Virus record (IMG/VR): IMGVR_UViG_3300037501_000111
Coordinates: 192,001 to 256,000 of that record
DNA length: 64,000 nucleotides
Reading direction: 5' to 3' (one strand)
From: a virus
Lineage: Duplodnaviria; Caudoviricetes
Shown: in pieces, positions 25,762 to 49,200 of the stretch
Numbering within the stretch: the stretch's first letter is position 1
Layout of the letters: each line of letters starts with the position of its first letter
The notes under the pieces: model-generated
The model's database searches: none
What the model was told of the DNA's origin: nothing
What the model saw: the letters and a program-made list of their open reading frames with translations, nothing else
Translations under genes and position numbers: made by a program

Positions 25762-28311
25762 TTATGGTACCAATCCACCAGCTCCATTCCAAGCTAGATA
25801 AATTCCGTTTTGTAAATGTATCCAACGAGCAGTTCCATTTACTGTACCACCACTTGTATATGCTCCATTGCCCGTCGTACCATTTAATGTAAAGTGAGTG
25901 CTATCTACTACTGTGATCACAAAAGTTCCATTAGCTGCTGTGTTTCCATTAACGCCAGAAATTACAACCGTCTGACCTGTTGTTAAACTATTAGCAGCAG
26001 ACGTAGTAATCTGTATTGGTGATGTATTGCTTGCTTCAGTTACAGTAAGTGAAGCGGTATTCTCTGTGCTTTGTATAAATGCGCCAAAATTAGTTCTACC
26101 CTGTCTGATAAACGGAGCAGTGCCAAGTAATCTTTGATTGAGACCATATACGGTATTGCCGGTAGCGGGAAATGGCAAATTAAGACCAGGATCCGTTGCT
26201 ACGCCTCCCCATAATTCCCAAGGTAACACCTCAGTAGTGGTAGTAAATGGGCAGTCTCCTGCGTTGGCTGCGTATACAGGAGAAGTTCCTGAAATACCAT
26301 CAGCGTTAGCCCACCCAGCTAGACCGCACATTTCTGGTACGAAATCTCTGTATGTAAATCCTACATTGAAGTTTATTCCCCATCTTGCTTGAATAGTTCC
26401 ATAATCTCCCTGGTTATTGCCACCATATATAAACGGCCTATTTGAGTTTGCTGGAAGTGGAGTTGGTTCATTATCTGGTAGTCCAAATGTTACAAATCCA
26501 TTGCTGCCGCCGCCTTGTGGTCTTGCATATAGGAAAATGGCGCGGCCAGTATCATCGCCAACTATAGTAATACGTGGTGCAAATGAAGGATTAACAGATC
26601 CAATAATTGTATTTGAATATGGATTTCCTAGAGGAATATTGCTGTCTAAATATTGTGCTATGTGGGTGGTGACTCCGCCAACAGGAAAGTCACCAAAGAT
26701 ACTTCCGCCATAACCTATACTCATCGAGGCATAATTAGGAGAGCCGGAGATATTCCAAGGCTCACCAGCAATTCTAACCTGCCATCCACTTGAATGCGGG
26801 CTCTGAAGTATTATTCTACTGTTAGGTGACACATCATCACCTCCAGTATAACCAACACGACTTACAGTCCCTCCACTTGTATAGTTCCCGTTACCAGAAG
26901 ATCCATTAAGAGTAAATATGCCAGCTCCAACCCTAGTAATAGTCCAGGTACCGTTGGCCGCAGTATTACCATTAACTCCAGATATTGTTACTCGTTGTCC
27001 AGTATCGTAGTACGAAACAGCACTAAGATTTATTGTAATTTGAATGGGTGTTGTGTTTGTTGCGGTATTTATTGAGGTGCTAGTTACTTGATTATTATTT
27101 GGTAATAACAAATGTTCTGATATACGAGTTTCTGTTTCATACAGCCACCAATCCATAGTCTCAGGTGGTGGGGTGTCAGTTGATCTATAATCTATAGTAT
27201 AAGAATTGGTAGCAGTATTTGTGGCCGTTATCTTGAACAATCCACTATTTTTTGTGGGATATTTGCTACTTTTAAGAACTAATATTCTGCCAGTATCACC
27301 GGCTGATGGGGCTGCTCCATTTACTACTGTTCTAACAGTAGTTGGAACTTGTACTGCGTAAACAGAGGGCGCTCCGCCAAAATTAATACTAGCTCCAGTG
27401 CCGCCTGCTACGGTTCCAGAAGCAATTAATAATCCTTGAGGTAATATTGATGCGGTATTTGCCACAAATGTTGCTGCTACAGTCCAAAGTACTCTTAGTT
27501 GGTTTGAACTAACAACTTCTACTTTATACGGACCAAAATTTCCAAGGCTAGAGTTATTAAAACCATAAAAACTATTTGATAGATTATTGTTTATAGTAAG
27601 ATACTCGCCAGTATTCATTCCATGTGGAAACTGTGTTGTGATAACCAGAGGATTACCAGAAGCGGTAGAAATTCTATTTGGACCACAAGCTACTCCGCCA
27701 ATTCCTGCTGATGAAACACTATTACCAGTAGACATAGTTCCCGTACCGCCAGAACATCCAGTAAAGGTAGTGGCGGTGGTGCCCGTATATGTAACTGTTT
27801 GCACTCCAGCAGATGTAACAACGTAAATAGTTCCAGATGTAGGAAATCCAGTAGTGGAAGCTACGTTAATTGTTGCTGTTGGAAGAGCGACACCATTAGA
27901 AGCGGCAGCAATGGTGGTGGTGAACCCCGAGGACATAGTGCCGGTTCCACCTGTACAATTAGTAAAGGTAGTAGCAGTAGTTCCTGAGTATTTAACTAAT
28001 TGAACGCCATCGCTAGTTGTGACATATATAAGTCCAGAGGCTGGAAATCCAGTGGTAGAAACAACATTGATTGTTGCTTGAGGTAGAGATTGCCCATTAG
28101 AAGCGGCAGCGATTGCTGTGTTTTGAGAAAATGTAAAAGATAAGTTATTTGTATTGTTTAAATCAAATCCTGTATGCCCTACAATAGAGTACCCTAGCAC
28201 TTTATTTAAAAATACTGCGGTGCTGAATAGATATGAAACATGTTGAAAGGAAGATGCCGTTGTGTATCCGCTAGTAACGGGAGTAAAATCTCGTAGTATA
28301 TGAACTGCCAT
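25762..28311 (-). CDS. fibre/decoration protein, scaffold family A (849 aa), 2 T-modules plus 3 FCCH-like modules
   Basis: Shares RILVLKS..NSG, RIILQSPH..GWQVR, GDDTG, EPTPLP, GRTNFG blocks with 30268 and 33073. Confidence 0.75.
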   Translation of the reverse strand: MAVHILRDFTPVTSGYTTASSFQHVSYLFSTAVFLNKVLGYSIVGHTGFDLNNTNNLSFTFSQNTAIAAASNGQSLPQATINVVSTTGFPASGLIYVTTSDGVQLVKYSGTTATTFTNCTGGTGTMSSGFTTTIAAASNGVALPTATINVASTTGFPTSGTIYVVTSAGVQTVTYTGTTATTFTGCSGGTGTMSTGNSVSSAGIGGVACGPNRISTASGNPLVITTQFPHGMNTGEYLTINNNLSNSFYGFNNSSLGNFGPYKVEVVSSNQLRVLWTVAATFVANTASILPQGLLIASGTVAGGTGASINFGGAPSVYAVQVPTTVRTVVNGAAPSAGDTGRILVLKSSKYPTKNSGLFKITATNTATNSYTIDYRSTDTPPPETMDWWLYETETRISEHLLLPNNNQVTSTSINTATNTTPIQITINLSAVSYYDTGQRVTISGVNGNTAANGTWTITRVGAGIFTLNGSSGNGNYTSGGTVSRVGYTGGDDVSPNSRIILQSPHSSGWQVRIAGEPWNISGSPNYASMSIGYGGSIFGDFPVGGVTTHIAQYLDSNIPLGNPYSNTIIGSVNPSFAPRITIVGDDTGRAIFLYARPQGGGSNGFVTFGLPDNEPTPLPANSNRPFIYGGNNQGDYGTIQARWGINFNVGFTYRDFVPEMCGLAGWANADGISGTSPVYAANAGDCPFTTTTEVLPWELWGGVATDPGLNLPFPATGNTVYGLNQRLLGTAPFIRQGRTNFGAFIQSTENTASLTVTEASNTSPIQITTSAANSLTTGQTVVISGVNGNTAANGTFVITVVDSTHFTLNGTTGNGAYTSGGTVNGTARWIHLQNGIYLAWNGAGGLVP

Positions 28312-28313
28312 TT

Positions 28314-30260
28314 TTAAGCTCCACTCGCAAGAAAGTTATACGGTAGTATAGCGCCATCCCATGGAAGACATATACCATTAACTAAATGAATAAACTCTCC
28401 ACGATCGCCAATCAGAAAGAATGGTGGTAATCCTCCAAATGTTACTCTATGTGGTCTCATTCTTGCTCTGGCAAAAGAAAATTGACCGGCAGCAGATGAA
28501 ACTGCCATTAGAGTTTCTCCAGTTATTACTTTTGCGATTTTATTTTGATATCCTAATTGTGTATTTAAATTAAAACCCACAGTATATGTTGGACCAATGG
28601 TAGCGTTAGCAGTATCACCAACAAGGTTTCTACTAATTAATTGATGAGATCTGGTTGTTCCATCAAACCCAACCATACCAAATGAAGTACAAAAAGAATC
28701 TGTGCCAGTACTATTATTCAAAGTATTCCCACCAGCTAATATAGCAATTAAATTTGGGTCTTGTGTTTGTGTGTATAGTCTAGCTGGCGTAGTTATCATA
28801 AAATAAAGACCAGTTGTATTGCCGCCATTTGTGGGAGATTTAACATGTCCGAAAAAGAAATCCGTGTCAGCAATGAAAGACACAAATCCCGAAACGGCTG
28901 ATGTGGTTCCAGTAAAATTAGTTGCTGAAATTCTTTCAGACATAGTGGTATTACTACCGCTCCCGGAAAATGATGTGCCATTCCAGCTACCATTTGGAGA
29001 TCCTATGTATCCCATTTGACCAAATGCGTTGGCAGATCCTCTTAATAGCATCTGAAATTGACTTACAGCAGCGCCCGGATTTATGTTAGGGGCGCCTGTA
29101 AAATTACCAATAAAATAGTTACCGTTACCTATACTTAATTGAGACGCGGCAATCACATCAAGAACTCGATAGCTGAGCGATGCTCTTGCGGTCAAATTAT
29201 TCTTCAATGAAGAAATGTCAGTCGTACCACCACTAAATGGTACAATTTTTATCTGGGTATTTGATGGTACTGCAACTATTCTGTAGATTGAATCATCTGT
29301 GCTTGGAGGATTAACTGATACAGATCCATTAGGTTGCATTAATCCAGTGCCTCCCGAACATCCAACAAATGTTTGTCCAGTTACAGCATTACCAGTTGTC
29401 ATAGTCCCAGTACCACCTGAACATCCTGTAAAGGTTGTTGCTGTTACTCCTGTGTAAGTAACGACTTGTGGCACATTGTTAGAAGTTACTACATTGATTA
29501 CCCCAGAGGTTGGAAATCCAGTTGTGCTAGCGACATTGATTGTGGCTTGCGGTAAGACTTGACCGTTTGAACCCGCAGCGATTGTAGTACTAAGTATACC
29601 AGTGTAATTTACTGTTTGTAAGCCGGTGCTACTTTGAACGAAAACAGAGCCGCTGGCTGGAAATCCAATAGTAGATTGAACATTTAAAGTAGATTGTGGT
29701 AAAGTGAAACCGGCAGATCCTGGCGCAATACCGCTTCTGGCCCCCGCCAACCAAACAACTATATGCTTACCAATCATAGATTGAGAAAATGGTTGAGAAG
29801 ATGCCGCTGTAAATGTATCTCCTAATGCAGATGTTACTCCATCATTACCTACAGCAAGCACGGATGAACCTTCAAAAAATCCACTAGGAGAAGAAGTTGG
29901 TGAAATTGGAATACCACCGGGAATAGTAACTTGGCCACCAGTAGTGTAATTTGCATTACCCACCGCTCCATTTAAAGCAAATTGCGTAGAATTAACTACA
30001 GTAACATTAAATCCACCATTTGCTGAAGTATTACCTTGAACCCCATAAACTCCAACTAGTTGGTTATTTGATAGTCCGTGCGGAGTAGATGTAGTTATAA
30101 CAATTGGATTTGTATTGGAAGCGGCAGTAACAGTTAAAATACTAGGGGCACCGTTTACGCAATACGCCCAAAAATTGTAGGCAAGGTTTAAAAAGATAGG
30201 GATATCCCTACCATTTGTACCTGTTGTATATTGTAGCCCTCTCAGAAATTTAATGGCCAT
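28314..30260 (-). CDS. fibre/decoration protein, scaffold family B (648 aa), nested T-modules plus 1 FCCH-like module
   Basis: Shares FLRGL, FW.YCVNG, SP.G.WNG, RLY.Q..D, GQFS..R.R, NGI..WD..ILP blocks with 34840. Confidence 0.75.
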   Translation of the reverse strand: MAIKFLRGLQYTTGTNGRDIPIFLNLAYNFWAYCVNGAPSILTVTAASNTNPIVITTSTPHGLSNNQLVGVYGVQGNTSANGGFNVTVVNSTQFALNGAVGNANYTTGGQVTIPGGIPISPTSSPSGFFEGSSVLAVGNDGVTSALGDTFTAASSQPFSQSMIGKHIVVWLAGARSGIAPGSAGFTLPQSTLNVQSTIGFPASGSVFVQSSTGLQTVNYTGILSTTIAAGSNGQVLPQATINVASTTGFPTSGVINVVTSNNVPQVVTYTGVTATTFTGCSGGTGTMTTGNAVTGQTFVGCSGGTGLMQPNGSVSVNPPSTDDSIYRIVAVPSNTQIKIVPFSGGTTDISSLKNNLTARASLSYRVLDVIAASQLSIGNGNYFIGNFTGAPNINPGAAVSQFQMLLRGSANAFGQMGYIGSPNGSWNGTSFSGSGSNTTMSERISATNFTGTTSAVSGFVSFIADTDFFFGHVKSPTNGGNTTGLYFMITTPARLYTQTQDPNLIAILAGGNTLNNSTGTDSFCTSFGMVGFDGTTRSHQLISRNLVGDTANATIGPTYTVGFNLNTQLGYQNKIAKVITGETLMAVSSAAGQFSFARARMRPHRVTFGGLPPFFLIGDRGEFIHLVNGICLPWDGAILPYNFLASGA

Positions 30261-30267: not shown

Positions 30268-32541
30268 TTAAACTAATATTGGTGGTCCGCCCCAAAACAT
30301 AAACATTCCTCGTCTAATATGCATAAATGCGCGAGAAGTATCATGAGTTAATGTATATTCTCCGAAATTAGCTCTTCCTTCTCTTATATGCGGGATAGTT
30401 CCTATAAATCTCGGTTCTTGTACTGGAAAAGATGTACCGCTCCAGCCAGTAAAAGTTCCAGCAATCACATCTACTGGGAATAATTCTGTACCGCCTAACC
30501 AAGGATTATCTCCAGCGCTGCCGTCAAAAATAGGGCTACCGGTTTGTCCAACTCCACTAACGTATGTTATTAGTGATACTGCTGCTGATACCGGAATTGG
30601 AGTAGTAGTAGATTTAGTTTCTTGCATATTTACTCCTTGAGCTAAATTACTAGCTCCTATGTTACCGGGATACCAGCTAGTGTCATTTAAAAAGTCTCCA
30701 TTTGAACTGCCCGAGCCGCTGCCAATTGTAAATAGCCTAGCTTCATTATTACTTGGTAATGGTAAAGGTTCTACTTCTGGTATTCCAAACGTAACCAGAA
30801 AAGATTTAGGAGTAGTACCATTACTTGGTCTACGCCCAATCATGGTCACACCAAGACCATAACCATCGTCTCCAATTATAGTATGTCTATAAGTAGTATT
30901 AAGTGTTTGAGGATCTCCGCATCCTATGGCTCCACCTGAATAAGTTCCACTATTGCTGTTGTAGTATAATGGAGTATGAAGATGCCTTCCGGCAACCAAA
31001 AAATCTCCTGCTGAATTACCATCAAATCCTGGTGACATTGTTATTGGTGGACAATTTGCCTGATCGGTATTTGTTTCATTACAAATTCTAATTTGCCATC
31101 CAGTGGTGTGTGGGCTTTGTAAAATTATTCTCGGTGTCGTGGAATCTCCATTCCCTCTATATTGACCTGCTGGATTCGTATTGTTAGCTCCATTTGTTGG
31201 AGCGTTAGCGTCGCTAGCATACAAGTACCAATTCATACTATCTGTTGGTTCAATAGGCGGTAAACTTGGTGAGAAAAATACTGCTCCACCGGTTGACATA
31301 GTGCCAGTTCCACCAGTACATCCTGTAAAGGTTGTCTCTGTTCTTCCAGTATAAGCTACTTGTTGAACACCAGCGCTAGTTGTTACGAACACATTTCCAG
31401 ATGGAGAAAACCCGGCAAATACGCTGCCACCAGTTGACATTAATCCGGTACCACCAGTACACCCAGTAAATGTAGTAGCGGTTGTGCCAGTATATGCAAC
31501 AGTCTGAGTACCAGCATTAGTCGTTACGAAAATAATTCCAGTAGTTGGGAATCCTGTAGTTGAGTCTACGTTAATAGTACCTGTTGGTAACCTAACGTTA
31601 TTAGATCCTGAGGCAATTGTAGTTGTGGCTGTTGTAGTAGACGCTACATTGATGGTAGTTTGTGGTAGAGTTTGTCCGTTGGATCCTGCTGCAATAGTTG
31701 TAGCAATACCAGCTACAATCGGAGATCCTCCTAATACGCTACCAGTACCACCCGTACAACCAGTGAACGTAGTTCCAGTTGTACCAGTATAGTTAACTGT
31801 TTGCCTTCCTGCTGGAGTACAGATAAAAATAGTTCCGCTTGTAGCAAATCCAGATGTTGTACTAACATTAAGGGTACCTGTAGGCAATGCAATACTAGCA
31901 GTTACTGAATTATTAGTTGACATGGTTCCAGTGCCACCGGTGCACCCTGTAAAGGTGGAGCTAGTAGTTCCGGTGTAGTTAACCGTTTGTATTCCGGCAT
32001 TTGTTGCAACTAAAATTGTGCCGGATGTTGGAAAACCTGAAGTAGAAGCAACGTTGATAGTACCAGTTGGTAGAGAAACGTTGTTAGAGGCAGCCGCAAT
32101 AACGGTCGTACCACTCAGAAAAATGCTAGTTCTATATGCAATACGATATGAATTTGTTCCTGTATCATACCCATCAATTAAAAAACAGCCAGAATTATAC
32201 GTAGGATTAGAGGTACTTCTTAAAACTAATAATCTACCAACATCTACTTGACTAACTACTCTAGTGCCAGCGGGAATAGATACAAAAAATTCTAAACCTG
32301 AAGCCAGATTAATACCAGCTTTTGTTCCACCAGCAAAAGAAGGTACCGCGGCCGTAGGAGTAGAATCTGCAGTGGCAACTAAAAGTGTGCCCACTGAATT
32401 TATATTGAAATTAGTATCTCCAACATATGTATATAGTAATACTCTTCGAAGAAATATCGCCATCAGATAAGATGGAATATAATTTCTAGCTGGAAACGAT
32501 ACATTTTGTATTAAATAGTCTCGTAATAAATGTCTAGCCAT
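30268..32541 (-). CDS. fibre/decoration protein, scaffold family A (757 aa), 4 T-modules
   Basis: Family A conserved blocks; T-module block inserted between AYRTS and LPPIEP. Confidence 0.75.
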   Translation of the reverse strand: MARHLLRDYLIQNVSFPARNYIPSYLMAIFLRRVLLYTYVGDTNFNINSVGTLLVATADSTPTAAVPSFAGGTKAGINLASGLEFFVSIPAGTRVVSQVDVGRLLVLRSTSNPTYNSGCFLIDGYDTGTNSYRIAYRTSIFLSGTTVIAAASNNVSLPTGTINVASTSGFPTSGTILVATNAGIQTVNYTGTTSSTFTGCTGGTGTMSTNNSVTASIALPTGTLNVSTTSGFATSGTIFICTPAGRQTVNYTGTTGTTFTGCTGGTGSVLGGSPIVAGIATTIAAGSNGQTLPQTTINVASTTTATTTIASGSNNVRLPTGTINVDSTTGFPTTGIIFVTTNAGTQTVAYTGTTATTFTGCTGGTGLMSTGGSVFAGFSPSGNVFVTTSAGVQQVAYTGRTETTFTGCTGGTGTMSTGGAVFFSPSLPPIEPTDSMNWYLYASDANAPTNGANNTNPAGQYRGNGDSTTPRIILQSPHTTGWQIRICNETNTDQANCPPITMSPGFDGNSAGDFLVAGRHLHTPLYYNSNSGTYSGGAIGCGDPQTLNTTYRHTIIGDDGYGLGVTMIGRRPSNGTTPKSFLVTFGIPEVEPLPLPSNNEARLFTIGSGSGSSNGDFLNDTSWYPGNIGASNLAQGVNMQETKSTTTPIPVSAAVSLITYVSGVGQTGSPIFDGSAGDNPWLGGTELFPVDVIAGTFTGWSGTSFPVQEPRFIGTIPHIREGRANFGEYTLTHDTSRAFMHIRRGMFMFWGGPPILV

Positions 32542-32548: not shown

Positions 32549-33076
32549 TTACTGTATCCATCTTCCTACTATTTTGATGTCTACTAATGGATTTCCAGAA
32601 GGAGGGGTGTAGAATATACCTAAATCTACATTTGGGGGATTTCCATTTGGGTCAAATAATACTGGCGACGGATTTTGGTTTGAATCAAACAATTCTGGAC
32701 GAGGTACTATTTGTTCAGAAATGATCCATGTTTCATATAAACTTGTATTTGGGTTATATCCGGACACCTTATAATATATCTTTTGATCTTTTGGATGCAA
32801 CAGAATTGGATTATTATCCATTTGTTTTGACTGAGTGCTATCAACCAAAACAGTGTTGTAGTTATTGTTAACGCCAAAATAATCTTGGTCTTTAGTAATA
32901 TTACTAATACCTGTACTTACATCTATAGCGAGATAATTGTTTGCGATTCCAGCATAGAAAATTTCCACCTCTCCTTGACCATTTCCCAGATCTGTACCCA
33001 TAAAATTGCTGGAACTACCAGAATAATTTTCGTTGGTTCCAAAATTAATTGCAGTAATATCTGCCGCATAACTCAT
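32549..33076 (-). CDS. virion-associated protein with YYK..W C-terminal module
   Basis: ATGA overlap with the 33073 stop gives start 33076 (track start 33133). Confidence 0.65.
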   Translation of the reverse strand: MSYAADITAINFGTNENYSGSSSNFMGTDLGNGQGEVEIFYAGIANNYLAIDVSTGISNITKDQDYFGVNNNYNTVLVDSTQSKQMDNNPILLHPKDQKIYYKVSGYNPNTSLYETWIISEQIVPRPELFDSNQNPSPVLFDPNGNPPNVDLGIFYTPPSGNPLVDIKIVGRWIQ

Positions 33077-34830
33077 GGTATTACCTGTGGTCCATTCCAA
33101 GTCACATACACGCCTCGCTTCATGTGCATCCATGAATGTGAACTATCAGTAGTTACTGTAAAGTTACCAAAATTAGACCTTCCTGCTCTGAGATGTGGTA
33201 TTGTTCCTAATATTCTGGGTTCAATTGGAAATACGTTCTCAATTCCTGCATTTCCATTCCAGGTAGCAAATGTTCCTGCCAATAAATCTACCGAGAATAA
33301 TTCAGTAGATCCACTCCATGGACTATCTGCCGCAGAACCATCAAAAATAGGACTTCCAAATTGAGCTACTCCAGAAACATAAGTCCACAATGATGGAACG
33401 CAGCTACAAGGAACACCTCCCTGAGTTTGTGTTACTCCCTGACACCAGTTACCACGGTTTAAATCTCCAGAACTTCCCTGATACAAAATATTAGGAGACC
33501 AGCTTATATCGTTAAGAGAGTTGCCATATCCGCCGATACCACCAGTACTAATTCCGCTTCCGATCATAAATAATCTAGCTACATTATTCACTGGCAGTGG
33601 TGTTGGTTCATTTTCAGCTAAACCACAAGCAAAGAAATAATCTTGTGGTACGCTAATAAAACTTACTGCTGGGTTAAACTGTCTGCGGCCAAAAATAACT
33701 ACACCTTGTCCTGTGTCATCTCCGACAAGCGTTAATCTCCACGAGAATGGCCAGTAACTACTTGGTGTACCATTAACAGAAGAATCATCTCCAAATCCTG
33801 GTGCAGTTCCTGCAAATTTGGTTGTGTTATTTGTATTATAGTAAAGTGGTCCATGTAAGTGTGGGCCAGCTACAGCAAAATCTCCAGCAGAATTACCGCC
33901 AAAACCAGGCACACAAGTAATAGTGGGCACATTGCCATAATTACCGTTGCTATTAAAATTTTGACTATAATCAGCAAATGTTTCATGACATAGCCTAACT
34001 TGCCAGCCCAATGCATGAGGGCTTTGCATTATAATACGTGGGGTAGTAGAGTTTCCATATCCTCCGTACGTACCGCTATTTACAGCTACCCATGTACTGT
34101 TTGGAGATCCAGATGCTGGAGCAGCAGTGTCCTTTTCATAAATGTACCAATTCATGCTACCAAATGGTTCGACCGGTGGAAATCCGGTAGCACCCATTGT
34201 TCTATAGTCGATAATGTAGCAATTAGTTGTAACAGTACCTCCGCTTGTGTAGGTACCATTTCCAGTTGTTCCATTTAAAGTAAATTGAGTACTATTTAAT
34301 ACAGTAATTGTAAAAGTCCCGTTAGCTGCGGTATTACCACCAACTCCAGAAATGACAACAGTTTGCCCTGTAGTTAAAGTATGAGGGGTAGTAGTAGTAA
34401 TTTGAATTGGTGAAACGGCATTTCCTGAAGTAGTAGACACTGTATAGTTGAGCGCTTCAAATCCAGTGATAAGATAAATTCCTGAATTATATGTAGAATT
34501 AGCTGTGCTTCTTAGAACTAACAATCTACCAACATCAGTTAAACTTACTGTTCTAACCGATGGCGGTATCCAAACATAAAACTCTCTACCGGAACCCTGA
34601 TTAATCCCAGCTTTGGTGTTGGCTGGAAAAGTTGGCGTACCAGTTGGAGTAGTGTCGGCCGTAGCAATTAATAGTGTTCCGACAGCATTGATTGGGTAAT
34701 TAGTGTCACCAACATAACTATACAATAGTATTCTTCTCAGAAAAATACCCATCAGATAGCCACATATCCATTGCTTTGCATTAGTTGTTATGTTCTGAGT
34801 GAAATAATCTCGAACTGTGTGTATAGCCAT
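33073..34830 (-). CDS. fibre/decoration protein, scaffold family A (585 aa), 1 FCCH-like module
   Basis: Family A conserved blocks; closest to a bare scaffold. Confidence 0.75.
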   Translation of the reverse strand: MAIHTVRDYFTQNITTNAKQWICGYLMGIFLRRILLYSYVGDTNYPINAVGTLLIATADTTPTGTPTFPANTKAGINQGSGREFYVWIPPSVRTVSLTDVGRLLVLRSTANSTYNSGIYLITGFEALNYTVSTTSGNAVSPIQITTTTPHTLTTGQTVVISGVGGNTAANGTFTITVLNSTQFTLNGTTGNGTYTSGGTVTTNCYIIDYRTMGATGFPPVEPFGSMNWYIYEKDTAAPASGSPNSTWVAVNSGTYGGYGNSTTPRIIMQSPHALGWQVRLCHETFADYSQNFNSNGNYGNVPTITCVPGFGGNSAGDFAVAGPHLHGPLYYNTNNTTKFAGTAPGFGDDSSVNGTPSSYWPFSWRLTLVGDDTGQGVVIFGRRQFNPAVSFISVPQDYFFACGLAENEPTPLPVNNVARLFMIGSGISTGGIGGYGNSLNDISWSPNILYQGSSGDLNRGNWCQGVTQTQGGVPCSCVPSLWTYVSGVAQFGSPIFDGSAADSPWSGSTELFSVDLLAGTFATWNGNAGIENVFPIEPRILGTIPHLRAGRSNFGNFTVTTDSSHSWMHMKRGVYVTWNGPQVIP

Positions 34831-34839: not shown

Positions 34840-37800
34840 TTATATGATGAAGAACAAGTTTGATGGTAAGATTGTGTTATCCCAAATTATGGCAATACCA
34901 TTTTGTATATTAAGGAACTGTCCGCTTGGTGTACCAAATCTGTGATAGAGTGGTAGTTGCGTGCTTGTAAATTTTAGAGTTCTTAATCTTACTCTGCCCA
35001 ATGAAAATTGTCCTGTTACACCCGGCAAGCATAGTACACCATCTGAAGCTATTATAGTTCCTCGTGTTGTGTTGAATGCTAATTTAATGTCTGTAAGGTT
35101 AGCTCCAAAAGACGGCGAGCCATCTCCTGCTAAAGATTTAGATAACATTCGATGAACTCTAATAGTTCCAGTAGTATCTTTCATCCAAAAACCATTACCA
35201 ATAGTTCCGTTACCACCGGCAGATGTACCATCACATCTAAAAACAGTTCCATTGAATACTCCACCTCTTGTATTTACTATTACAGGATTTATATCCGCAG
35301 ATTGTGGATAAAGTCTGATTGGAATTTCACAGTGGAAATATGATGATCCATCTCCACTGTTTATATCTTTGTAATGCATCCAGAAGAATGCCGGATCAGC
35401 AGCCATTGTCATAGCCATAGTGTTAGCTGGGCCAGTGTTGAAGATATTTCCACTCAGTGTATTATTGAATTGTGCAGTTGCATCTATCTGCGGATCTCCA
35501 GTGACAGGAAATGTAAGGCCATTCCAATTTCCTCCTGGAGAAATAATAGTGCCAATGGTACCGGCAGTATCATTTCCAAACATTTGTACCTGGCTATTGG
35601 CTTGGCCAGGATTAATACCAACTGCTGATGGATTGAATTGCATAACCATATAGTTTCCGTTGCCGCTACTAAATGTTTGAGCAAGTCCAGCATCCACAAT
35701 TCTATAGTTGATATTTGTTCTATTAGTAAATGATGGGTGTAGATTTGTTGGATCGGGAGTGCCCCCAGTATTCAAATTGACTCTAATAGAGTTAGGACTA
35801 TTAACAGCAGTGATTATGTAGATAGCATCTTCAGTAGTTCCAGAATTTGGCTTCCACATTATTAACAGTTTTCCAACCATATTGCTGGTTGTAACTGTTT
35901 GTGTTCCACCACTGGTCCAAGATCCGTTTGGGGCAGAATTATTTAGGTATATACTATTACGATTGGCAATAGATCCTCCGCTTGTATATGTTCCTGATGC
36001 AAAAGATCCGTTTAATGTAGCAATTCTATTGCTAATTGCTGTGGTTAAAAATGTGCTATTAGCATTTGGCAAACCACCTATTCCAGATGTTATAACAGTC
36101 TGTCCAGTTAGTAATGTATGGAAATCGGAAGTGATAACAGTAATTGGCGACAGTATAGTATTTCCAGTAGTCATTGTACCGGTACCGCCCGAACAACCAG
36201 TGAAAGTATTATGAGTGGTTCCAGTATAGCTTACTGTTTGAACTCCGGCGCTACTTGTGATATTAAAAGATCCGCTTGAGGCATAGTTAATAGTCACTGG
36301 ATTGCCGGTTGACATGGTGCCAATACCGCCCGAACAACCAGTGAAAGTTGTGCCGGTCGTTCCAGTGTAAGTAACTGGTTGATATCCAAGAGTGGTTAAA
36401 ACATAAATGTATCCACTAGTTGGGAATCCTGTGGTAGACGCAACGTTAATAGTAGATTGTGGTAAGGCTTGTCCGTTAGAAGCAACAGCAATCGAAGTAT
36501 AGTTGCTTGCTGGAGAAAATGCCGTAAATACAGCACCGTCCGAGGAGGTATTTCCTGTACCACCAGAAGCCCCAGTTAATGTAGTGGCTGTTACTCCAGT
36601 ATATGTTACTAGTTGAGATCCGTTAGTAGTAGTAATATAAAGTGAGCCAGTAGTTGGGAAATTGGTAAAGAAACCAGTATTATTTACAGTATTACCAGTA
36701 AACATAGTTCCAACACCACCTAGTGCTCCAGTAAATGTAGTTGCTGTTGTGCCAGTATATGTAACAGCTTGATTAAATGGTCCACCACCGATTGGGTTAT
36801 TAATCAGTAAAGTACCAGTACCACCTGTTACACCAGTAAATGATGTAGCGGTAATTCCAGTATAAGTAACTGAGGTAGCTGCATAAACAGTGCCACCAGT
36901 TGACATGGTACCACCTCCGCCAGAACATCCAGTAAAGGTAGTAGCAGTGGTACCAGTATATGTAACTATCTGAGAACCAGTGCTGGTTGTTACAAAAATT
37001 GTACCAGAGGCTGCAAATCCAGTCGTAGACGCTACGTTGATAGTTCCTTGTGGTAGAGCTTGTCCGTTGGATCCTGCTGCAATAGTTGTTTGAATAGCGT
37101 TATCTGCTACACTTAGTGTGCCGCTGGTTGGAAATCCACTAGTAGTAGATACGTTAATAGTTGATTGTGGGAGTGATTGCCCGCTAGATCCAAGTGCAAT
37201 ACTTGTTACAACTATTGTTGCAACATTCAAAGTACCAGAGGTTGGGAATCCGGTAGTAGAGGCTACGTTAATTGTGCCTGTCGGCAGATTAACATTGTTA
37301 GAGGCAGCAGCTACAGTTGTAGAGGCAGTTGCGGTAGCAGCTACGTTAATAGTTGCTTGTGGGAGCGTTTGAACACCAGTTGTAGTTGTAAATGGTGCAA
37401 CAGTACTTGAGTTAACAGTTGCTTGTGGCAATGTGGCACCGTTTGATGGAAACGCCGTAGTAGTATTAAAATATGTTGCATTAGAAATAGAGTTAGTTGG
37501 TGTATTAATAGTCCACGTACCATTAGCTGTGGTATTTCCAGTTACTCCGCTTACAACAACTGATGCCAAGTTAACATAAGAATTTGCCGCGGTCATATTT
37601 ACTGAAATTGGAGCATACACAGCGCCATCAATAGACATAGTTCCTGTACCACCTGAACATCCTGTAAAGGTTGTTCCCGTAATTCCTGTATATGTAACTG
37701 TTTGTATACCAGCACTAGTGGTGACATGAATTGTTCCAGAACTTGGGAATCCGATAGAAATAGATCCGCCAGTTTGCATAGATCCTCGACCTAAAGTACA

Positions 37801-39615: not shown

Positions 39616-40557
39616 TTAAAATCCTAGTTTTGTCCAAGAGCCTACAATTTCTATTGGCCCAAGATTGCCGCCACATGGAGCAGGAGGTGCTCCGTTATAG
39701 TTTATTCCTGTAGAAATCCAATAAACAGGATTTGAAGTAGCACAATTAGTGTCATATGCTCTTAACTTATAATACCTAGTTAAAGGGCTTGTCCCTGTAC
39801 CAGGAGATAATACTCCATTTCTATATATATTCTGGAAATATGATTGTGGTCTAACTATATTCGCAATTCTAAAATCACAAATTGAAACAACTGGCTCTTC
39901 TGGATTTCCAGACCCCGATGGAATAGCTCCAAAAAACCATGGTCCTGGCGTGGATCCATAATTAATAGGCCCAGTTGAGGTAGCGGTAGCTACAACGTTT
40001 CCGTTTATATAAGCTATTTGCGTAGTACCATCCCAAGTCACCGCAGTGTGAGTCCAAGCATGAAGAGGAACTGTACTCTCTGCTGATACTAATGGAGTTC
40101 CACCTGATGTTGGTAAAACAAATAAATCCCACTGCTGAGATTGGCCAGCATATGTTCTATTTTGTAGTTCGACAGAAGCAAATGTACTGGACCAGTTCCC
40201 AGTATTAGTTTGTTTGACCCATAAATGTTGTGTGAATCCTGTTGTATTATATGCTCGCAAATATACCCAACAAGAAAATGAAACTGGTGCTTGCGGCATA
40301 ACACTATTAGCTCCAGAAATAAAATTTCGAGGACTGCTACTGTTGGCACCAGTAAACATGATACAACTATTAGCACCAGAAGCTGCAAATAAGCTTGGTT
40401 GCTGTAATAATATTGTTCCAGATAGAGTAGATAAATCGGAAATGGCATGTGACGGGGCGGAAGGAGACGTAGATGAATTTACGAACGGAGCGCCAGCTTC
40501 GTCTAATCTCCACACAACAATATCATTATCATCTGGTGCTATTCTTGTTCCTGACAT
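39616..40557 (-). CDS. LamG/concanavalin A-like lectin-domain protein with YYK..W tail
   Basis: VWRLDE, SFSCWVY, WTHTAVTWDGTTQIAYING. Confidence 0.8.
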   Translation of the reverse strand: MSGTRIAPDDNDIVVWRLDEAGAPFVNSSTSPSAPSHAISDLSTLSGTILLQQPSLFAASGANSCIMFTGANSSSPRNFISGANSVMPQAPVSFSCWVYLRAYNTTGFTQHLWVKQTNTGNWSSTFASVELQNRTYAGQSQQWDLFVLPTSGGTPLVSAESTVPLHAWTHTAVTWDGTTQIAYINGNVVATATSTGPINYGSTPGPWFFGAIPSGSGNPEEPVVSICDFRIANIVRPQSYFQNIYRNGVLSPGTGTSPLTRYYKLRAYDTNCATSNPVYWISTGINYNGAPPAPCGGNLGPIEIVGSWTKLGF

Positions 40558-40566
40558 TAGTTTTCC

Positions 40567-41289
40567 TTATGGTACCGTTCCGCCAAAATATACATCAGCA
40601 AAATAAGATTGTGGTCTAACAATATTGGCCAGCCTAACATCCTGTACCATTATATTTCCTCCGTCTAATGACGTCGTGTCTGGAATAGTTCCTATGAACC
40701 ATTTACCTGGATTTGAACTATTATCAACCGCTCCTCCCCCAGGGACTAATGTTCCCACTAAAGTACCATTTAGATAAGCTCTAAGTGTAGTACCATCCCA
40801 AGTTTCCCCAATATGAACCCATCTACCTTGTGGTATAAGATTTGGAGAATTAATAGCCAATTCTCTTAAAGTGCCGCTGGTAGTAACGTAAGCAATCCAT
40901 CTTCCATCAGAAGTATTTCTAATGTATAAACCACATGTCAAAAATGGAAAAGCCCAGGAATTAGCAATGTACTGCTTAGTAAAAACGGAACCAAAATTAC
41001 TAGCGTATCTTCTAACATAAACCCAAGCAGAGATTGAAAAATTGGTTGGAACGGTAACTCCATATGCTCCACCAGTGCCATCGTGATTAGGAGAGATGCT
41101 TTGCCCAGGTATATAAACCCCTTTGAAATCTTCATCTATCTTAATAATTCCAGGTACTTCGGTAAGCATGTTTCCATAATCTACAAGATCGCCAATCGAT
41201 CCTAATGTTCCTAAATTTGGACGATTAGGACCTTTCTCGTTAAGTGGATATACTAGGATATCATTTGCATCAGGCGCTACTCTAGCCAT
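40567..41289 (-). CDS. LamG/concanavalin A-like lectin-domain protein
   Basis: FSISAWVY, WVHIGETWDGTTLRAYLNG, VQDVRL. Confidence 0.8.
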   Translation of the reverse strand: MARVAPDANDILVYPLNEKGPNRPNLGTLGSIGDLVDYGNMLTEVPGIIKIDEDFKGVYIPGQSISPNHDGTGGAYGVTVPTNFSISAWVYVRRYASNFGSVFTKQYIANSWAFPFLTCGLYIRNTSDGRWIAYVTTSGTLRELAINSPNLIPQGRWVHIGETWDGTTLRAYLNGTLVGTLVPGGGAVDNSSNPGKWFIGTIPDTTSLDGGNIMVQDVRLANIVRPQSYFADVYFGGTVP

Positions 41290-42784: not shown

Positions 42785-45733
42785 ATGAGTAATTATCCTT
42801 TTAGTTTCGACAATAACATAACCCTCCCTGGTGTTTCTGGAAGTTCACAGGAAGATGTAGCTATTACTGCGCTTAGAAGTGCGGTTTTTGCCATTGAAAC
42901 AGAGTTGGGCGTAACGCCTAGTGGAATTTATCCAGATGTCAGAACTAGATTAGATATTTTAGAATCTAGGCTCCAATTTGGGGTTTCTCCGCAAATTCCA
43001 AATGATGGTTATGTAAAAAGTCCTTTATATATCTGGAATGTGCCTCAAAATGTAGTTTTAAGCATTAGTGACGGCTACGGCGCTCCCACCGAAAATAGAT
43101 TAGACGGCTCTCTTTATATGAGAGGTGGGGATGGTTACGCTAATAATCAACTTTATGTTAGGTTAAATGGCCAATGGAAGCCCGTTCAAACTGAACAATT
43201 TGTTGCATCAAATGATCTAATTGGATATCCTCCTGGTTCAGACGGGCATTTAGCTCAAACAGTTGTGGGTTTGTATAACCATCCATTTGCCACAACTATG
43301 AACTCTGTTGGTGCCATTCAAGATGGTTACCATGTTACCTGGAATAACTTTACCAGTCACTGGGAAGAACAAACTGGATTTATACCAGGTCGTGATTTGA
43401 TGGCATTTTCTGGCCCTTATGGCCGCACCGGTCAGCAAGTTATTGGTCTGCAAGGATTCCCATTATCAGGGTTCCCTCCAACTGACGGATATACATTAGT
43501 CTGGCAGGCATCGGATAACCGCTGGGAACCACAAGCCCGTGCAGTTGTATTCGATGGTTATGTTGCTCGTGTTAATTTGAGGTCCAACCGCGCTCAACAA
43601 TCACCAATTTTAAACACTAAGACTGGAATTGTAAACTTTGGAACTGATACAAGTGGAGCGAGCCTCGGAGCCACCAACGACTATGCTATAATTTTAGGTG
43701 GTGACAGAAACCTTTCATCCGGAATTCATGCAATCACAGTAGGCGGTTTTGCTAATAATTCTTCGGATGGCTATGCCTTAATAATTAACGGAAATTCTAA
43801 CATAGCGTCTGCCCAAAACTCGACAGTACTTAATGGAATTACCAACACAGCTAGCGGAATACGATCATTTGTACTTAATGGTACATCAAATACTGCTTCC
43901 GGTGTCAACTCGTTCGTTGGTAATGGAACTAGTAACACAGCCGCAGCTAATCTTTCTGCAATTCTAAACGGATCTTCTAATAGTATTTCTATAGGATCCA
44001 CACACACAGGTATTGGGTTTGGAACAAATAACCAAATAACAGGCGGGGCAGCTTCTCAATTCTCTGTTATTATTGGCGGCACCACAAATGTAATTTCTAG
44101 TGCAGAAAATGTTCTGATCGGCGTTCCAGATAGTTCTGATTCGGCCGCGCCACATTCTATTCTGTTATCTGGTGTAAATAACTCTATACTTACACTGTCT
44201 GATTATTCTGCGGTCTTAACCGGCGTAAATAATACAGTAAACATTTCTTCAGAATATGGATTCATTGGAACCGGTCAAAACAACAGCGTAACCGGCCACT
44301 TCTCTACTATTTTGAATGCTGATACTTCTACGGTTAATGGTCAGCACGCTACGGTTCTAAAAGGACTTAGCAACAGCGCAACTGGTCCATACTCCACTAT
44401 TGTTAATGGTAATAATAACCTTATCAATAGTGCTGGTTGGAGTATTATCCTCGATGGATACAATAATAGTGTAACTGGTACCGGCTCATTTATTGCTGAT
44501 GGTTACAATAATAGTGTTTCTGGGTTCTTTTCATCCATTCTAAATGGTAACTTCAATACTATTGCAGGTAGAAATAGCACTGTATTAAATGGTGCCAATA
44601 ATACCATAGACTCTACTAGTGCCGAGAGCACAGTTATAGTTGGAGCTAATAACTCATTCGTTAACTCGGCCAATACTACTGCAACTGGAAGTGGAAATAC
44701 TTTCACAAACGCCGCCCAGACTTTTGTAATTGGAACTACTAATAGTATTCAATCGGCCTCTTCGTTTATTAACGGTTCAACTAACACACTTGCAGCCGGA
44801 TCTATATTTAACAGAATGTTTGGCTCCTTTAACACTATTGGCGCTAATGCATCTACTAATTTTATTATTGGTAATGCAAATATTATTGGCCCATCTAATA
44901 CTACATCCAATACTATAGTACTAGGAACTAATAACTTAGTTGATAACTCTAATACAGTACTTATCAGAGGATCTAGCAATATAGCCAACTCTAATTTTGG
45001 TAGTGTAAGTGGTCAATTTGGTAAATCTAGGATGTTTGGCCAAGAAGTTAGAGCCAACTCTAGATTTACTTCTACTACCATTGCGGCTGGTTCTAACGGA
45101 GCTAGCTTGCCACAAGCTACAATTAACGTAGCATCTACCGCAGGATTTCCAGCTAGCGGATCAATTGCAGTTATTACCTCATTAGGTATGCAATCCGTGA
45201 ACTATTCTGGTACAACTGGAACTAGTTTCACAGGATGCTCTGGTGGTACTGGTACTATGTCAACTGGTAATGCAGTTGGTAAAATTGGTGAGGCTCAGTG
45301 GTCACACTTAGTATTAACTGGCATGGCTGCTGGTGGTGCGGCTGTTCCACTACAATTACAGGATGCTATTGCAGCTAATCCAACTTTTGTTGATGGTTAT
45401 TCTTATGATTTAAGCATCAAAGTGCTTATAGTAAATACATCTCCAATTACACCAAATCCTGTTGTTCCTGCAAGATATTATATTGATGTACTTGCACATC
45501 AGGAAAGTGGTGTCTTAGTTCTTGATAATATTAACTATACTTTATCTACACCTAACACGGTAGATAGTATATCTAGAACGCCTTGGACAGTTACAGTTTC
45601 TACCAATGGCGCTAACCAAATGTTAGTTACGGTTGATACCGAATCAATTACTTCCTACGTGCAACCAAGCAATACTCCATCTGACAGAAGGGCAATTGCT
45701 ACGATTGAAATGCGAGAAATTTCGAGAATATAA
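42785..45733 (+). CDS. tail-fibre/adhesin protein with YadA-head-like ~14-residue beta-roll repeats and one T-module
   Basis: Repeats such as NSTVLNGITNTASG and RSFVLNGTSNTASG over ~450 aa. Confidence 0.75.
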   Translation: MSNYPFSFDNNITLPGVSGSSQEDVAITALRSAVFAIETELGVTPSGIYPDVRTRLDILESRLQFGVSPQIPNDGYVKSPLYIWNVPQNVVLSISDGYGAPTENRLDGSLYMRGGDGYANNQLYVRLNGQWKPVQTEQFVASNDLIGYPPGSDGHLAQTVVGLYNHPFATTMNSVGAIQDGYHVTWNNFTSHWEEQTGFIPGRDLMAFSGPYGRTGQQVIGLQGFPLSGFPPTDGYTLVWQASDNRWEPQARAVVFDGYVARVNLRSNRAQQSPILNTKTGIVNFGTDTSGASLGATNDYAIILGGDRNLSSGIHAITVGGFANNSSDGYALIINGNSNIASAQNSTVLNGITNTASGIRSFVLNGTSNTASGVNSFVGNGTSNTAAANLSAILNGSSNSISIGSTHTGIGFGTNNQITGGAASQFSVIIGGTTNVISSAENVLIGVPDSSDSAAPHSILLSGVNNSILTLSDYSAVLTGVNNTVNISSEYGFIGTGQNNSVTGHFSTILNADTSTVNGQHATVLKGLSNSATGPYSTIVNGNNNLINSAGWSIILDGYNNSVTGTGSFIADGYNNSVSGFFSSILNGNFNTIAGRNSTVLNGANNTIDSTSAESTVIVGANNSFVNSANTTATGSGNTFTNAAQTFVIGTTNSIQSASSFINGSTNTLAAGSIFNRMFGSFNTIGANASTNFIIGNANIIGPSNTTSNTIVLGTNNLVDNSNTVLIRGSSNIANSNFGSVSGQFGKSRMFGQEVRANSRFTSTTIAAGSNGASLPQATINVASTAGFPASGSIAVITSLGMQSVNYSGTTGTSFTGCSGGTGTMSTGNAVGKIGEAQWSHLVLTGMAAGGAAVPLQLQDAIAANPTFVDGYSYDLSIKVLIVNTSPITPNPVVPARYYIDVLAHQESGVLVLDNINYTLSTPNTVDSISRTPWTVTVSTNGANQMLVTVDTESITSYVQPSNTPSDRRAIATIEMREISRI

Positions 45734-46161: not shown

Positions 46162-46230
46162 TAACCATCAAAATTCTACGCATTTAGAATAGGGATAATC
46201 TAATAAAGAGACATCTCTCTAGGAGATTCT

Positions 46231-49200
46231 ATGGCAATACAGTACTATATGCGAGCCTACAATACGACTTTGTCCCAATATGTGGAATGGGTCGTAAATG
46301 ACGCGCCAGACAGTATAGGAACATTTTCTGGTTACCCAACAAACCAGTTAGTTAACATTATTGTCAACAGAATAGTACAGTCAAAAGTTGAGAATTTTCT
46401 AAAACCAAATCAATCACTTGGTGGCACTGATGGCCTTTTCTTTCACGTCAATAGCTATGACTGGAGAAATGCAGTTACCCCGATTCCTCCACCAACTGGA
46501 TTGACTGGATTTCAAATTGAACGAGGCGTAAACTTTATTGCCAGCATTACCGCGGCCTCTAACGCTTCGCCAATCAATATTACTACAGCCACTAACCATG
46601 GTTTGGTAACTGGTCAAATTGTAACTATTAATGGTGTTACTGGAAATGTAGCCGCTAATGGTAGCTGGCCAATTACTGTTCTTGGGCCAACTAATTTTAC
46701 ACTGAATGGTTCTGTAGGTAGTGGAGCCTCTTCTCCGGGCGGAAATGTTTTTACCCCAAGAGATATGTCATCTCTTATTTGGGACGAAACCAACGCTTTA
46801 TGGCGCTTCGTTTTTAACACCAATGGTGATGGTACTTCTCTTGGAGCATCGCAATCCTTAGTTGTAAATAACTTATTTGTTGATGGATTTTTAGCTCTAG
46901 GAATAGATCCTGCCGACACTGGTATTATCAGAATTCCTAATAATCAATATATTTTCTCAGAATCTAATCCAACCGGTATCGATATTCAATTAATCGGTGC
47001 TGACTTATTTAATAGGGTAAAACTTGGTAGTACAGTTACTGATATTGTTTATACTCCTGGTGTAATGGTAGTAGATGGATATGTTCAACATGATGGCACC
47101 AGCGATAACGTTGCAGCTTCAACTGGATTTATCCGTGAACTAAACAATACAAACATTGTTGCTTTCAAGAATGTTAACCAAGCATTTACTGATATCGTTG
47201 CACTAGGGTCTAATACATTCAATAATGTTATTATTGGTGATACGGTTAACACTGGAACCATTCACAATACAGCTAGTGGTACATTTAGCATTACTGCCGC
47301 TACTGCCGCAAACCCTGTTCAAATTACAGTATCTACTCCAACTACATTTGTAACTGGACAAAGCGTTACGATTAATGGTATCACTGGTACTATTGGTACT
47401 GACCCAACTAACGGATTGAATGGAAAAACATTCTCGATTGTAGTACTAAATACTACTCAGTTTACCCTAACTGGCTCTAACGGTACTGGTTTAGCCTATA
47501 CCAGTGGTGGCACAGTTACAACTAATAACGTTCACTCATTTCAAGTTGGCGGAAACACTCAAGTAGAAATTGGTGCACCATTCGTTAGATTTCCGTCATC
47601 TATAATTGCTCCGTTTATTTTACAATCTACAGCAGCAGTATCTACCAGTGGTCAAAATATGACCATTCAGTCACAGAATGCTGGATTGGGTGGCAGCAAT
47701 GGTGGTAATTTAACACTTACTACTGGTACTGGAACTACTAACGGTCTTATCAATTTGCAAACTGGTGGAGTAACTAGAGTTACCTTGAGTGATACTACTG
47801 AAACTCATATTCATCAGACAATTACTTTTGCTAACACTATTGCAAATCCAATTATTACTCAGGATACGACTTCTTCTGCCGCAGGTACTACACTAACTGT
47901 ACAAGCGCAAGCAACTTCATTAGCAGCTTCTGCTGGAGGAAATTTAGCACTAAGTTCTGGTATTGGTACATCACAATCTGGAAACGTCTTCATTCAGACT
48001 GGCGGAACAACACAGATCGTTGTATCGCCATTGACTATCGCACCAAGTGATTCTACCTTTGGTCCACCGACCACAGGCACTGTTATTATTAAAGGTAACT
48101 TAGAAGTTCAAGGGTCGATGACTACCGTAGAAAGTACGGTTGTTGATATTATTGGTAGAGTAATTCATGCTAATTGGGCTGATCCAATAAGTTCACCAAA
48201 CATATCGCCTTCTACACAGATAACTGGCTATAGTATCCATCGTGGTAATTTTGGAAGCGGTATTCCTCGTGATGGTAGCGCCTGGATTTGGACTGAGAAT
48301 CCAGATGGTTATTCGCATGCTGGCGCAGATGGATATTGGAGAGCAGTGACCATTCCTGGTGATGGTATTGGCACTGACAATTTTACAATTGCCAACTCTT
48401 TAAATATTGTTGGAGTTATGGGTAATGATTTTGCTGCTAGTTCTGATCCAAATCCTCTATCAGGATATTTGGCTGGTACCGGCAGTTTAAGAACCGCTAA
48501 TAACGTACCTGTAGCTGTTTCAAGAAACCTAACTGCAAGTACAACTGTTGCTGCCGCGTCTAATTTAACTACATTACCTCAAGCAACAATTAACGTAGTA
48601 TCTACGACCGGATTCACCAGTTCTGGTACGCTATTAATTCTATCTTCTACTGGTGTTCAAACGGTAACATACACTGGCACAACTGGAACAAGTTTTACCG
48701 GTGCAACTGGTGGTACAGGTCAAATTATTACTGGAAGTATTGTTGGACAAACTAATAGATCAACTACATTTAATGGAACTAACGGCACTACACTACCAAC
48801 AGCTACAATTACTGTAGCTTCCACTACCGGTTTCCCAGCTTCTGGAACTCTGCGTGTAGTAAGTCGTACTAGCAATAACTCTATTTCTCCACCAAGTGTA
48901 CAAGTAATTACTTACACTGGTACAACCGCTACTACATTTACTGGATGTTCTGGTGGTACGGGGTTCTTGTTTATTGGCGATTCTGTCACCAGCGTTCCAC
49001 CAGTTGGAACTCAAGATTTAGTTTTGTTAGGAACTGATTTTGGTAATCGCATCCTACACGGGTCTCCAAATAGTAATACTGGCCATATCTTCGATACACC
49101 AACTGGATTTTTCTATGACTTCCAGATTAATAGTATCTCTCAACTACAGGTTAGAGGCGATCTTGATTCGGATAGCTTTACCAGAACTTTAACAATTGCT

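Follow-up and report, generated by a model that had tools for sequence, protein, structure and literature searches.

A segment of roughly 65 codons, here termed the T-module, recurs in six genes for putative structural proteins within a 64,000-nucleotide (nt) stretch of DNA from a large uncultured phage (Duplodnaviria, Caudoviricetes; positions 192,001 to 256,000 of the IMG/VR record IMGVR_UViG_3300037501_000111), which is called the window throughout. Paralogous genes carry the module at different positions, and this raises the question whether it is a coding element that is still being copied from gene to gene or a protein domain whose distribution was established long ago. An initial interpretation of the DNA (the sequence-only reading) had assumed recent events and had left two options, a system that decorates fibers with a reusable domain or a selfish coding element. 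The evidence favors the reusable domain: with a probability of about 0.8, the T-module is an old, insertable decoration domain of fiber- or baseplate-like proteins in a clade of huge freshwater phages, and it is not currently jumping.

Distribution of T-Modules in the Window

An iterated profile of 68 positions, seeded by the single copy in gene g42785, was run on the six-frame translation of the 64-kb window, where its significant matches (E down to 1e-33) were confined to six open reading frames (ORFs). Against the seven large Thr/Gly/Ser/Asn-rich proteins encoded between 25.7 and 51 kb, the profile yielded 26 significant units, 12 of them full length (profile positions 1–68 or 9–67) and 14 partial. 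The partial units are N- and C-terminal pieces with complementary profile coordinates, which pair into seven split copies. The resulting total of 19 domains (two in g25762, two in g28314, four in g30268, eight in g34840, one in g42785, and two in g46231) agrees exactly with the count of the sequence-only reading. The seven genes and their modules are as follows.

25762–28311 (−): g25762, 849 amino acids (aa), family-A scaffold A1; two tandem T-modules at 27715–28119 (aa 65–199), near the N-terminus at scaffold site ~65, plus two E1_FCCH-like modules
28314–30260 (−): g28314, 648 aa, family-B scaffold B1; T block at 29319–29729, downstream of the GKHIVVW strand, with a split copy (aa 178–226 and 293–314, break at profile position ~50) around an intact copy (aa 225–293)
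30268–32541 (−): g30268, 757 aa, family-A scaffold A2; T block at 31279–32106, at scaffold site ~130–140 after AYRTS, with two intact copies followed by a split copy (aa 281–308 and 375–421) around an intact copy (aa 307–374)
33073–34830 (−): g33073, 585 aa, family-A scaffold A3; zero T-modules, and an E1_FCCH-like module in the same hot-spot loop (scaffold site ~128)
34840–38613 (−): g34840, 1257 aa, family-B scaffold B2; eight T domains, in block 1 (37618–38040) an intact copy enclosed by a split copy, in block 2 (36154–37464) four split copies (aa 384/774, 412/645, 432/615, and 470/579) with an intact core (aa 509–576) and a second intact copy (aa 706–773) within the outermost split copy
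42785–45733 (+): g42785, 982 aa, beta-helix fiber-like protein, family C; one T-module at 45074–45277 (aa 764–831) in the hairpin SRFT/GKIGE
46231–50898 (+): g46231, 1555 aa, large fiber-like protein, family D; two tandem T-modules at 48541–48987 (aa 771–919), plus two E1_FCCH-like modules near the N-terminus

The insertion sites described earlier are also found in the translations. The family-A segment AYRTS / LPPIEP is broken only in g30268, IDYRSTDTPPPE and IDYRTMGATGFPPVE being unbroken, and RANSRF / GKIGEAQ is split by the module in g42785. In family B the module follows GKHIVVW in g28314 and precedes GKLLIMW in g34840; the modules of these two genes thus lie after and before the same GKxxxxW strand, respectively, and each gene is empty at the site used by the other. 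Among the intact copies, profile position 55 is a nearly invariant single cysteine in the motif FTGC-GG-G; three C-terminal fragments belonging to the deep nest of g34840 have V, A, and A in its place.

Age of the Copies and Conservation of Their Positions

The direct-repeat families in the region are 60–75% identical in DNA. A codon alignment of the 12 full copies gave a median identity of 62% on the nucleotide level and 65% on the amino acid level, with differences spread along the copies and not limited to particular sites. The proportion of synonymous differences between copies (pS) ranges from 0.50 to 0.85 with a median of 0.67, which amounts to saturation, at a nonsynonymous divergence (dN) of about 0.2–0.3. 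The near-identical DNA that had been ascribed to copies in different genes is therefore not typical of them, as they usually share 60–75% of their positions and the tract quoted in support is the best match in the region.

Two IMG/VR contigs, R1 and R2 (the latter 480 kb long), share this gene block with its order unchanged. Their proteins are 78–86% (R1) and 67–70% (R2) identical to those of the window, and the synonymous divergence (dS) is about 1.4 and 1.7, respectively. All T units, including the split copies, occupy the same places in the window, R1, and R2, with two differences. Since genomes at a dS of 1.4–1.7 share the same architecture, this architecture predates a very deep divergence. 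The R2 orthologue of g25762 carries a third module as a clean insert of 73 residues in a loop that is uninterrupted in the window and in R1; no other copy is more than 72% identical in DNA to this additional one, and there is no duplication at its junctions.

In a maximum-likelihood tree of 37 full copies, orthologous position required 16 changes, compared with a minimum of 12 and with 29.7 for shuffled labels. Copies in the window are 72–81% identical to the corresponding copy of the nearest relative and 64–75% identical to their best paralogue, and the orthologue is the closer of the two at 11 of the 12 positions. The ratio of nonsynonymous to synonymous divergence (dN/dS) is 0.078 and 0.135 for T codons and 0.094 and 0.152 for scaffold codons, and judged by these ratios the modules are under constraint at the protein level, i.e., purifying selection.

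A nucleotide tree of all copies had been proposed as a check of mobility, which predicts that copies cluster across host genes; the grouping obtained follows orthologous position for the most part, contrary to recent mobility. Together with the saturated synonymous sites and the positions fixed at a dS of 1.4–1.7, it contradicts the assumption of recent copy-and-insert or gene conversion events. An ancient fixed architecture had been expected to show as identical module positions and numbers in related phages, synonymous saturation between copies, and absence of empty-site alleles. Nearly this pattern was found, as positions, numbers, and saturation agree with it, but empty-site alleles do exist.

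Empty and Filled Insertion Sites

The comparison of empty and filled sites in relatives was carried out on sixty homologues of g42785 that share both flanks of the insertion site (family C). The T-module is missing from 37 of the 60, which read SRFT-xG-KIGE, a two-residue hairpin turn, whereas 18 have one module of 70–73 residues exactly in the SRFT/GKIGE turn (site 1). The other five have an empty SRFT turn but contain a module in a second hairpin, AHQE/VLDN (site 2), that is unbroken in the window. On a tree calculated from the family-C scaffolds alone, the modules being masked, seven changes are required to explain which proteins are filled at site 1, and six of them are forced by well-supported branches. 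In the module tree, by comparison, the 18 modules from site 1 group in a single clade and the five from site 2 in another, so that each site was filled once. P0312, a homologue with an empty site that is nested among filled ones, shares 90% identity with its filled sister over the N-terminal part, but 68–69% in the vicinity of the site, a part in which an empty lineage is its closest match; this shift in identity identifies it as a recombinant mosaic. Going by these sequence relationships, the flips in family C are best explained by gene segments that related phages exchanged, whether or not modules were also lost now and then, and not by repeated transposition.

Family A, which comprises g25762, g30268, and g33073 in the window, has 373 homologues in the database. 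The 123 examined consist of 46 bare scaffolds of 483 residues, 40 proteins with E1_FCCH-like modules only, 14 with T-modules only, and 23 with both. Inserts occur in four loops, at scaffold positions of about 65, 128, 180, and 460, and the same loop may hold a T-module, an FCCH-like module, a nested T array, or nothing. The E1_FCCH-like module (PF16190, ~65 aa) has 9–10 copies in the window, at varying positions within 33073–34830, 25762–28311, 34840–38613, and 46231–50898. The clean empty and filled alleles of relatives thus bear out the earlier view of the T-module as a discrete unit that entered paralogous scaffolds in frame, at loops that differ between them.

One explanation of such alleles is an active mobile or selfish coding element, the DNA of which is copied and pasted in frame in the manner of Rickettsia palindromic elements (RPEs) and is merely tolerated in loops. 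This would agree with the differing positions of the module in paralogues and within itself, with a presence/absence pattern that flips at least seven times at one exact site of the family-C scaffold tree, and with the extra copy in the g25762 orthologue of R2. However, what the copies have in common is protein and not DNA (synonymous saturation, dN/dS of about 0.1, and 0.08–0.14 in the comparison with relatives), their positions are fixed across deeply diverged genomes, the inserts at the flipping site all trace back to one origin, a recombinant mosaic accounts for at least one flip, and the extra R2 copy has no close DNA match among the other copies. The matches of the six-frame search of the 64-kb window are furthermore restricted to structural genes, namely the six fiber-like ORFs. 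The proposed inspection of junctions for target duplications revealed none, the filled and empty junctions of the g25762 orthologues sharing only a trivial AAC, and neither inverted termini nor flanking inverted or terminal repeats of the modules were found. The ORFs scanned included no transposase, homing function, or reverse transcriptase; for the last of these, which would point to a diversity-generating retroelement, the scan with Pfam covered 27 ORFs, a subset of those in the window. A selfish element comparable to RPEs is accordingly extremely improbable.

Predicted Nesting of T-Modules within T-Modules

The split copies are interrupted at profile position ~50 in g28314 and ~22 in g30268, whereas the five of g34840 comprise two broken near 22 and one each broken at 22/18, 35/40, and 36/39. 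The pieces always enclose complete copies in proper nested order. The deepest nest, in g34840, has five levels and can be written as aa 384{412{432{470{509-576}579}615}645}{706-773}774. R1, R2, and P0008, a fourth relative, show the same bracket arrangement, which remains balanced in P0008 even though the copy equivalent to aa 706–773 is itself split there by one more insertion.

Split units are also contained in 40 of the 150 best database matches. Bracket matching in these 150 proteins identified 37 pairs of N- and C-terminal fragments, of which 34 have complementary breakpoints (within eight profile positions), compared with a mean of 15.6 and a maximum of 27 in 5000 shuffles; the Spearman rho is 0.83, and 28 simple triplets of N-fragment, full copy, and C-fragment were counted among the database proteins. 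The breakpoints cluster at profile positions 25–30, 33–39, and 47–51, which correspond to the three loops between the main predicted strands of the module. A structure of g34840 aa 190–334, comprising one split and one intact copy, was predicted with AlphaFold2 from 14 natural sequences of the same topology. The best model reached a predicted local distance difference test (pLDDT) score of 95.6 and a predicted template modeling (pTM) score of 0.74; all five models exceeded a pLDDT of 92, the N-fragment of 22 residues scored 93–97, and the strand pattern was that of a single module cut at the loop in question. When structural matches to the nested model were sought, all alignments covered the inner domain alone (residues 25–99). 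A two-chain prediction of the outermost g34840 pair (aa 380–412 with 772–822) gave a score of 0.02 with poorly folded fragments, a result that counts neither for nor against nesting.

Repeats rich in threonine, glycine, and serine frequently expand and contract by slippage, and the partial units could alternatively be remnants of tandem repeats that decayed or were truncated when deletions occurred, or parts of a continuous beta-structure, instead of the halves of interrupted domains. The composition of the proteins and the partnerless fragments in the database sample (eight N-terminal and ten C-terminal) would fit this explanation. On the other hand, the brackets balance in all three genes with split copies and in four genomes, including the one with an additional nested insertion; the proportion of complementary pairs lies above the shuffled maximum, the breakpoints coincide with predicted inter-strand loops, the model of a split and an intact copy is of high confidence, and the fragments are conserved under purifying selection. 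Decay of tandem repeats or a continuous beta-structure is for these reasons a very unlikely origin of the partial units. A more far-reaching idea is that recursive self-insertion is a selected building principle, by which three permissive loops would allow branched, tree-like clusters of identical domains to grow on a fiber and weak binding sites to multiply. This remains tentative, its chances being somewhat below even.

Predicted Fold and Affiliation of the T-Module

An AlphaFold2 model of the T-module based on a 34-copy alignment (pLDDT 96.2, pTM 0.81) shows a small barrel of 4–6 strands, with the main predicted strands at residues 16–19, 29–35, 38–44, and 51–53. Exhaustive structure comparison retrieved matches with Z scores of 5–8 at root-mean-square deviations of 2.0–2.7, 60–75 aligned residues, and 7–18% sequence identity. 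Among them are small barrels that occupy loops of tail-tip, tail-tube, and capsid proteins of phages (Chi, GP4, Mystique, lambda gpJ, JBD30, and the P22 I-domain) as well as the barrels at the N-terminus of F1/V1 ATPases, domain II of translation factors, and, with a Z score of 5.0, the E1 FCCH domain. For a predicted model, scores in this range support a shared barrel arrangement, with homology unsupported. The best match among predicted viral structures was a cyanophage baseplate wedge protein, with a template modeling (TM) score of 0.85 and 22% identity, whereas a Foldseek search of the PDB returned zero matches at E ≤ 0.001. A profile search of the PDB yielded only designed "Pizza" propellers, which were rejected as compositional, no stretch passing alone.

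No Pfam or PHROG model covers the module in the window or in its database relatives. Matches to PF16190 fall on the E1_FCCH-like module and never on T, and an alignment of the two profiles with hhalign gave a probability of 0.5%, i.e., no detectable sequence relationship. Pfam models of immunoglobulin (Ig), FN3, and Big_2 domains did not match at E ≤ 0.1, and the best structural matches are barrels and not Ig sandwiches. The module itself is widespread: a profile search of 1.84 billion representatives recovered 2,598 protein clusters at E ≤ 1e-3 and 1,049 at E ≤ 1e-10, and the T-bearing proteins range from 250 to 3,300 residues with up to 15 units each. Literature searches brought up neither an account of this module nor one of phage-fiber domains that nest in themselves. 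On the basis of the model and these searches, the T-module is predicted to be an autonomous beta-barrel domain of ~68 residues that belongs to a large family unnamed in databases.

DNA Exchange between Copies

The match of 41 of 42 nt between 37048–37089 and 31660–31701, on which the assumption of recent copying had been founded, was confirmed and forms part of a longer match of 65 nt with 91% identity. It is the best DNA match within 26 kb, and no longer tract reaches 90%. The two arms are located as follows.

31637–31701 (−): arm 1, coding for the first ~22 residues of a g30268 module; 91% identical over 65 nt to 37025–37089
37025–37089 (−): arm 2, start of the intact core copy of g34840

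Synonymous codons were resampled in 200 trials, with the protein sequences and the codon usage of the genes kept. The best in-register window of 63 nt contains 57 identities, compared with a mean of 52.7 and a maximum of 57 after resampling (p about 0.005).

This tract is one of several findings that weigh against the interpretation of the T-module as an old domain that no longer moves. Over the first 22 module codons, g30268 and g34840 agree at 59/66 positions, compared with 49/66 and 54/66 in the comparison with the orthologues of the nearest relative. As the tract is closer between the two genes than to the orthologues, it probably represents a short gene conversion that took place after the split from the nearest relative, and at the sequence level it shows that some exchange of DNA between copies still occurs. 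In addition, the second g46231 module of R1 has only 61% nucleotide identity to that of the window, compared with 72–81% at the other eleven positions, and may have been replaced by a different module. The R1 orthologue (L003:15966–16178) of the region 48763–48987, which contains this second module, is without the SRTSNNSISPPS loop. Further points are the seven gains or losses on the family-C scaffold tree, for which the attribution to recombination relies on one clear mosaic; the nature of fold, nesting, and surface exposure as predictions; the packing of N- and C-terminal fragments into one barrel, which is deduced from confidence values and secondary structure and not from contacts; and the tail or fiber assignment of the host proteins, which stems solely from weak PHROG matches of neighboring genes.

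The first two of these observations could also indicate ongoing concerted evolution, in which frequent gene conversion homogenizes or diversifies the fibers as a system of surface variation. Besides the g30268/g34840 tract, with its 57/63 identities, and the unexpectedly different g46231 module, a comparable within-genome match in a relative (57/66) is in line with this possibility. It is opposed by the greater similarity of the orthologue than of any paralogue at 11 of 12 positions, by the copy tree, which tracks position, and by the lack of tracts above 65 nt at 90% identity. Without long tracts and with orthologues closer, conversion must be rare and short and does not constitute a system; a single tract of ~65 nt resembles conversion and is the exception, not the rule, so that gene conversion does not hold as a general process. 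Concerted evolution is thus very unlikely, if not to the degree of a selfish element.

Genomic Context

Besides the fiber-like genes, the window encodes a UvsW-like helicase, a DnaB helicase with an IstB/DnaC-like loader, a class II ribonucleotide reductase, a PIN-PhoH fusion protein (13366–14679, +), a GH25 lysozyme, and an M23 peptidase. An M24 methionine-aminopeptidase-like protein (15363–16166, +) and an enzyme of the IMPDH/GMP-reductase family (54266–55309, −; E 1e-91) are present as well. DNA of the phage was detected in freshwater metagenomes, and among the assembled (Logan) contigs of three of these, two of which probably represent the source sample, the whole stretch lies inside one contig of 81.7 kb; apparent "joints" in the contig matches are other module copies of the same contig that align at 85%. 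No near DNA match was obtained in a phage collection by megablast of the region, nor a match to the g42785 C-terminus by tblastn, both with a low-complexity filter that may hide the module. The syntenic relatives reside on contigs of 210–498 kb, which characterizes the lineage as "huge phage."

None of the seven large proteins has a PHROG match. Next to them lie three LamG-like paralogues, together with small proteins whose matches to tail-fiber or baseplate PHROGs are weak, and by virtue of these neighbors the seven proteins are regarded as fiber- or baseplate-like. The LamG/concanavalin-like lectin-fold genes (319, 313, and 240 aa) are arranged in tandem at 38653–41289 (−), adjoin the fiber genes, and share conserved DNA blocks. 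An ORF of 194 aa (32549–33133, −) lies between g30268 and g33073 and overlaps the 3′ end of the latter by ~60 nt; its length is kept in both relatives (190 and 172 aa), and it has no family match. In the C-terminal part of g46231 (49554–50417, +), three to four direct repeats of ~270–330 nt with 62–74% identity encode a TEFRDAAEALRITPVSAGTTQ... unit and form a repeat family distinct from the T-module. Outside the main fiber block, a 558-aa protein (16979–18655, +) with a short collagen-like Gly-X-Y stretch matches phrog_972 (T4-type tail-fiber proximal subunit).

Origin and Relation to Known Decoration Domains

If the T-module is an old decoration domain, its copies would have arisen by rare in-frame insertion or duplication of a coding segment of ~204 nt through illegitimate or microhomology-mediated recombination. 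They lie in tight beta-hairpin turns of scaffolds that are otherwise conserved, side by side in tandem, and within three specific loops of other T-modules, and would have been retained because a turn tolerates a barrel with adjacent ends. Ordinary homologous recombination of gene segments would later have passed them between related phages or removed them, with occasional short gene conversion between copies and without the involvement of dedicated mobility machinery. Purifying selection on the protein suggests that the modules act, and are kept, as folded and exposed domains. Most probably they project from the fiber and add binding sites, reach, or bulk.

The module thereby belongs to a known kind, the promiscuous decoration domains and domain insertions of phage structural proteins. 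Promiscuous Ig-like domains reportedly occur on phage virion proteins. Like the Ig-like, FN3, and Big_2 domains, T is small, all-beta, scattered over structural proteins in variable position and copy number, and dispensable for the fold of its scaffold, as seen in the bare homologues of family A (46/123) and the family-C homologues without T (37/60); the Ig-like class is known from tail, fiber, and capsid proteins and is thought to bind surfaces weakly. In contrast to these domains, T is a predicted closed small barrel without Pfam Ig or FN3 match, sits inside hairpin loops instead of being appended, and nests in itself. The I-domain of the P22 coat protein (2m5s) and the tail-tip and baseplate insertion domains of Chi, lambda gpJ, and JBD30 are likewise small barrels in a loop of a conserved scaffold, but these are single, fixed insertions, whereas T is a multi-copy family and resembles them at 7–18% identity with Z scores at the level of arrangement only. 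The E1_FCCH-like module is similar in length (~65 residues) and all-beta composition and is interchangeable with T in the hot-spot loops of family A; it differs by an unrelated sequence and by the lack of any self-nesting seen. RPEs, too, are short in-frame insertions in many genes that are tolerated in surface loops, but they are palindromes conserved on the DNA level in unrelated housekeeping genes, whereas T is conserved on the protein level, contains no palindrome, and is limited to structural genes. Unusual for this kind are the new, unnamed family, the defined hot-spot loops with clean empty alleles, and the recursive self-nesting.

What had appeared to be a mobile coding element is thus, in the interpretation favored here, an old domain architecture reshuffled by ordinary phage recombination. 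Naming a domain of ~2,600 clusters (at 50% identity), most of which are structural proteins of huge phages, would improve the annotation of these genomes. Scaffolds that are bare or carry T, another module, or nested T represent a natural domain-insertion experiment, which can be used in studies of protein evolution and for the engineering of insertion-tolerant sites in fibers. Self-nesting over five levels that genomes have kept through deep divergence is uncommon for a protein domain of any kind and constitutes a testable structural prediction. If self-insertion is indeed a selected principle, the nests, which recur independently in dozens of unrelated metagenomic proteins, would represent not only a new family but also a new way to build multivalent phage adhesins.

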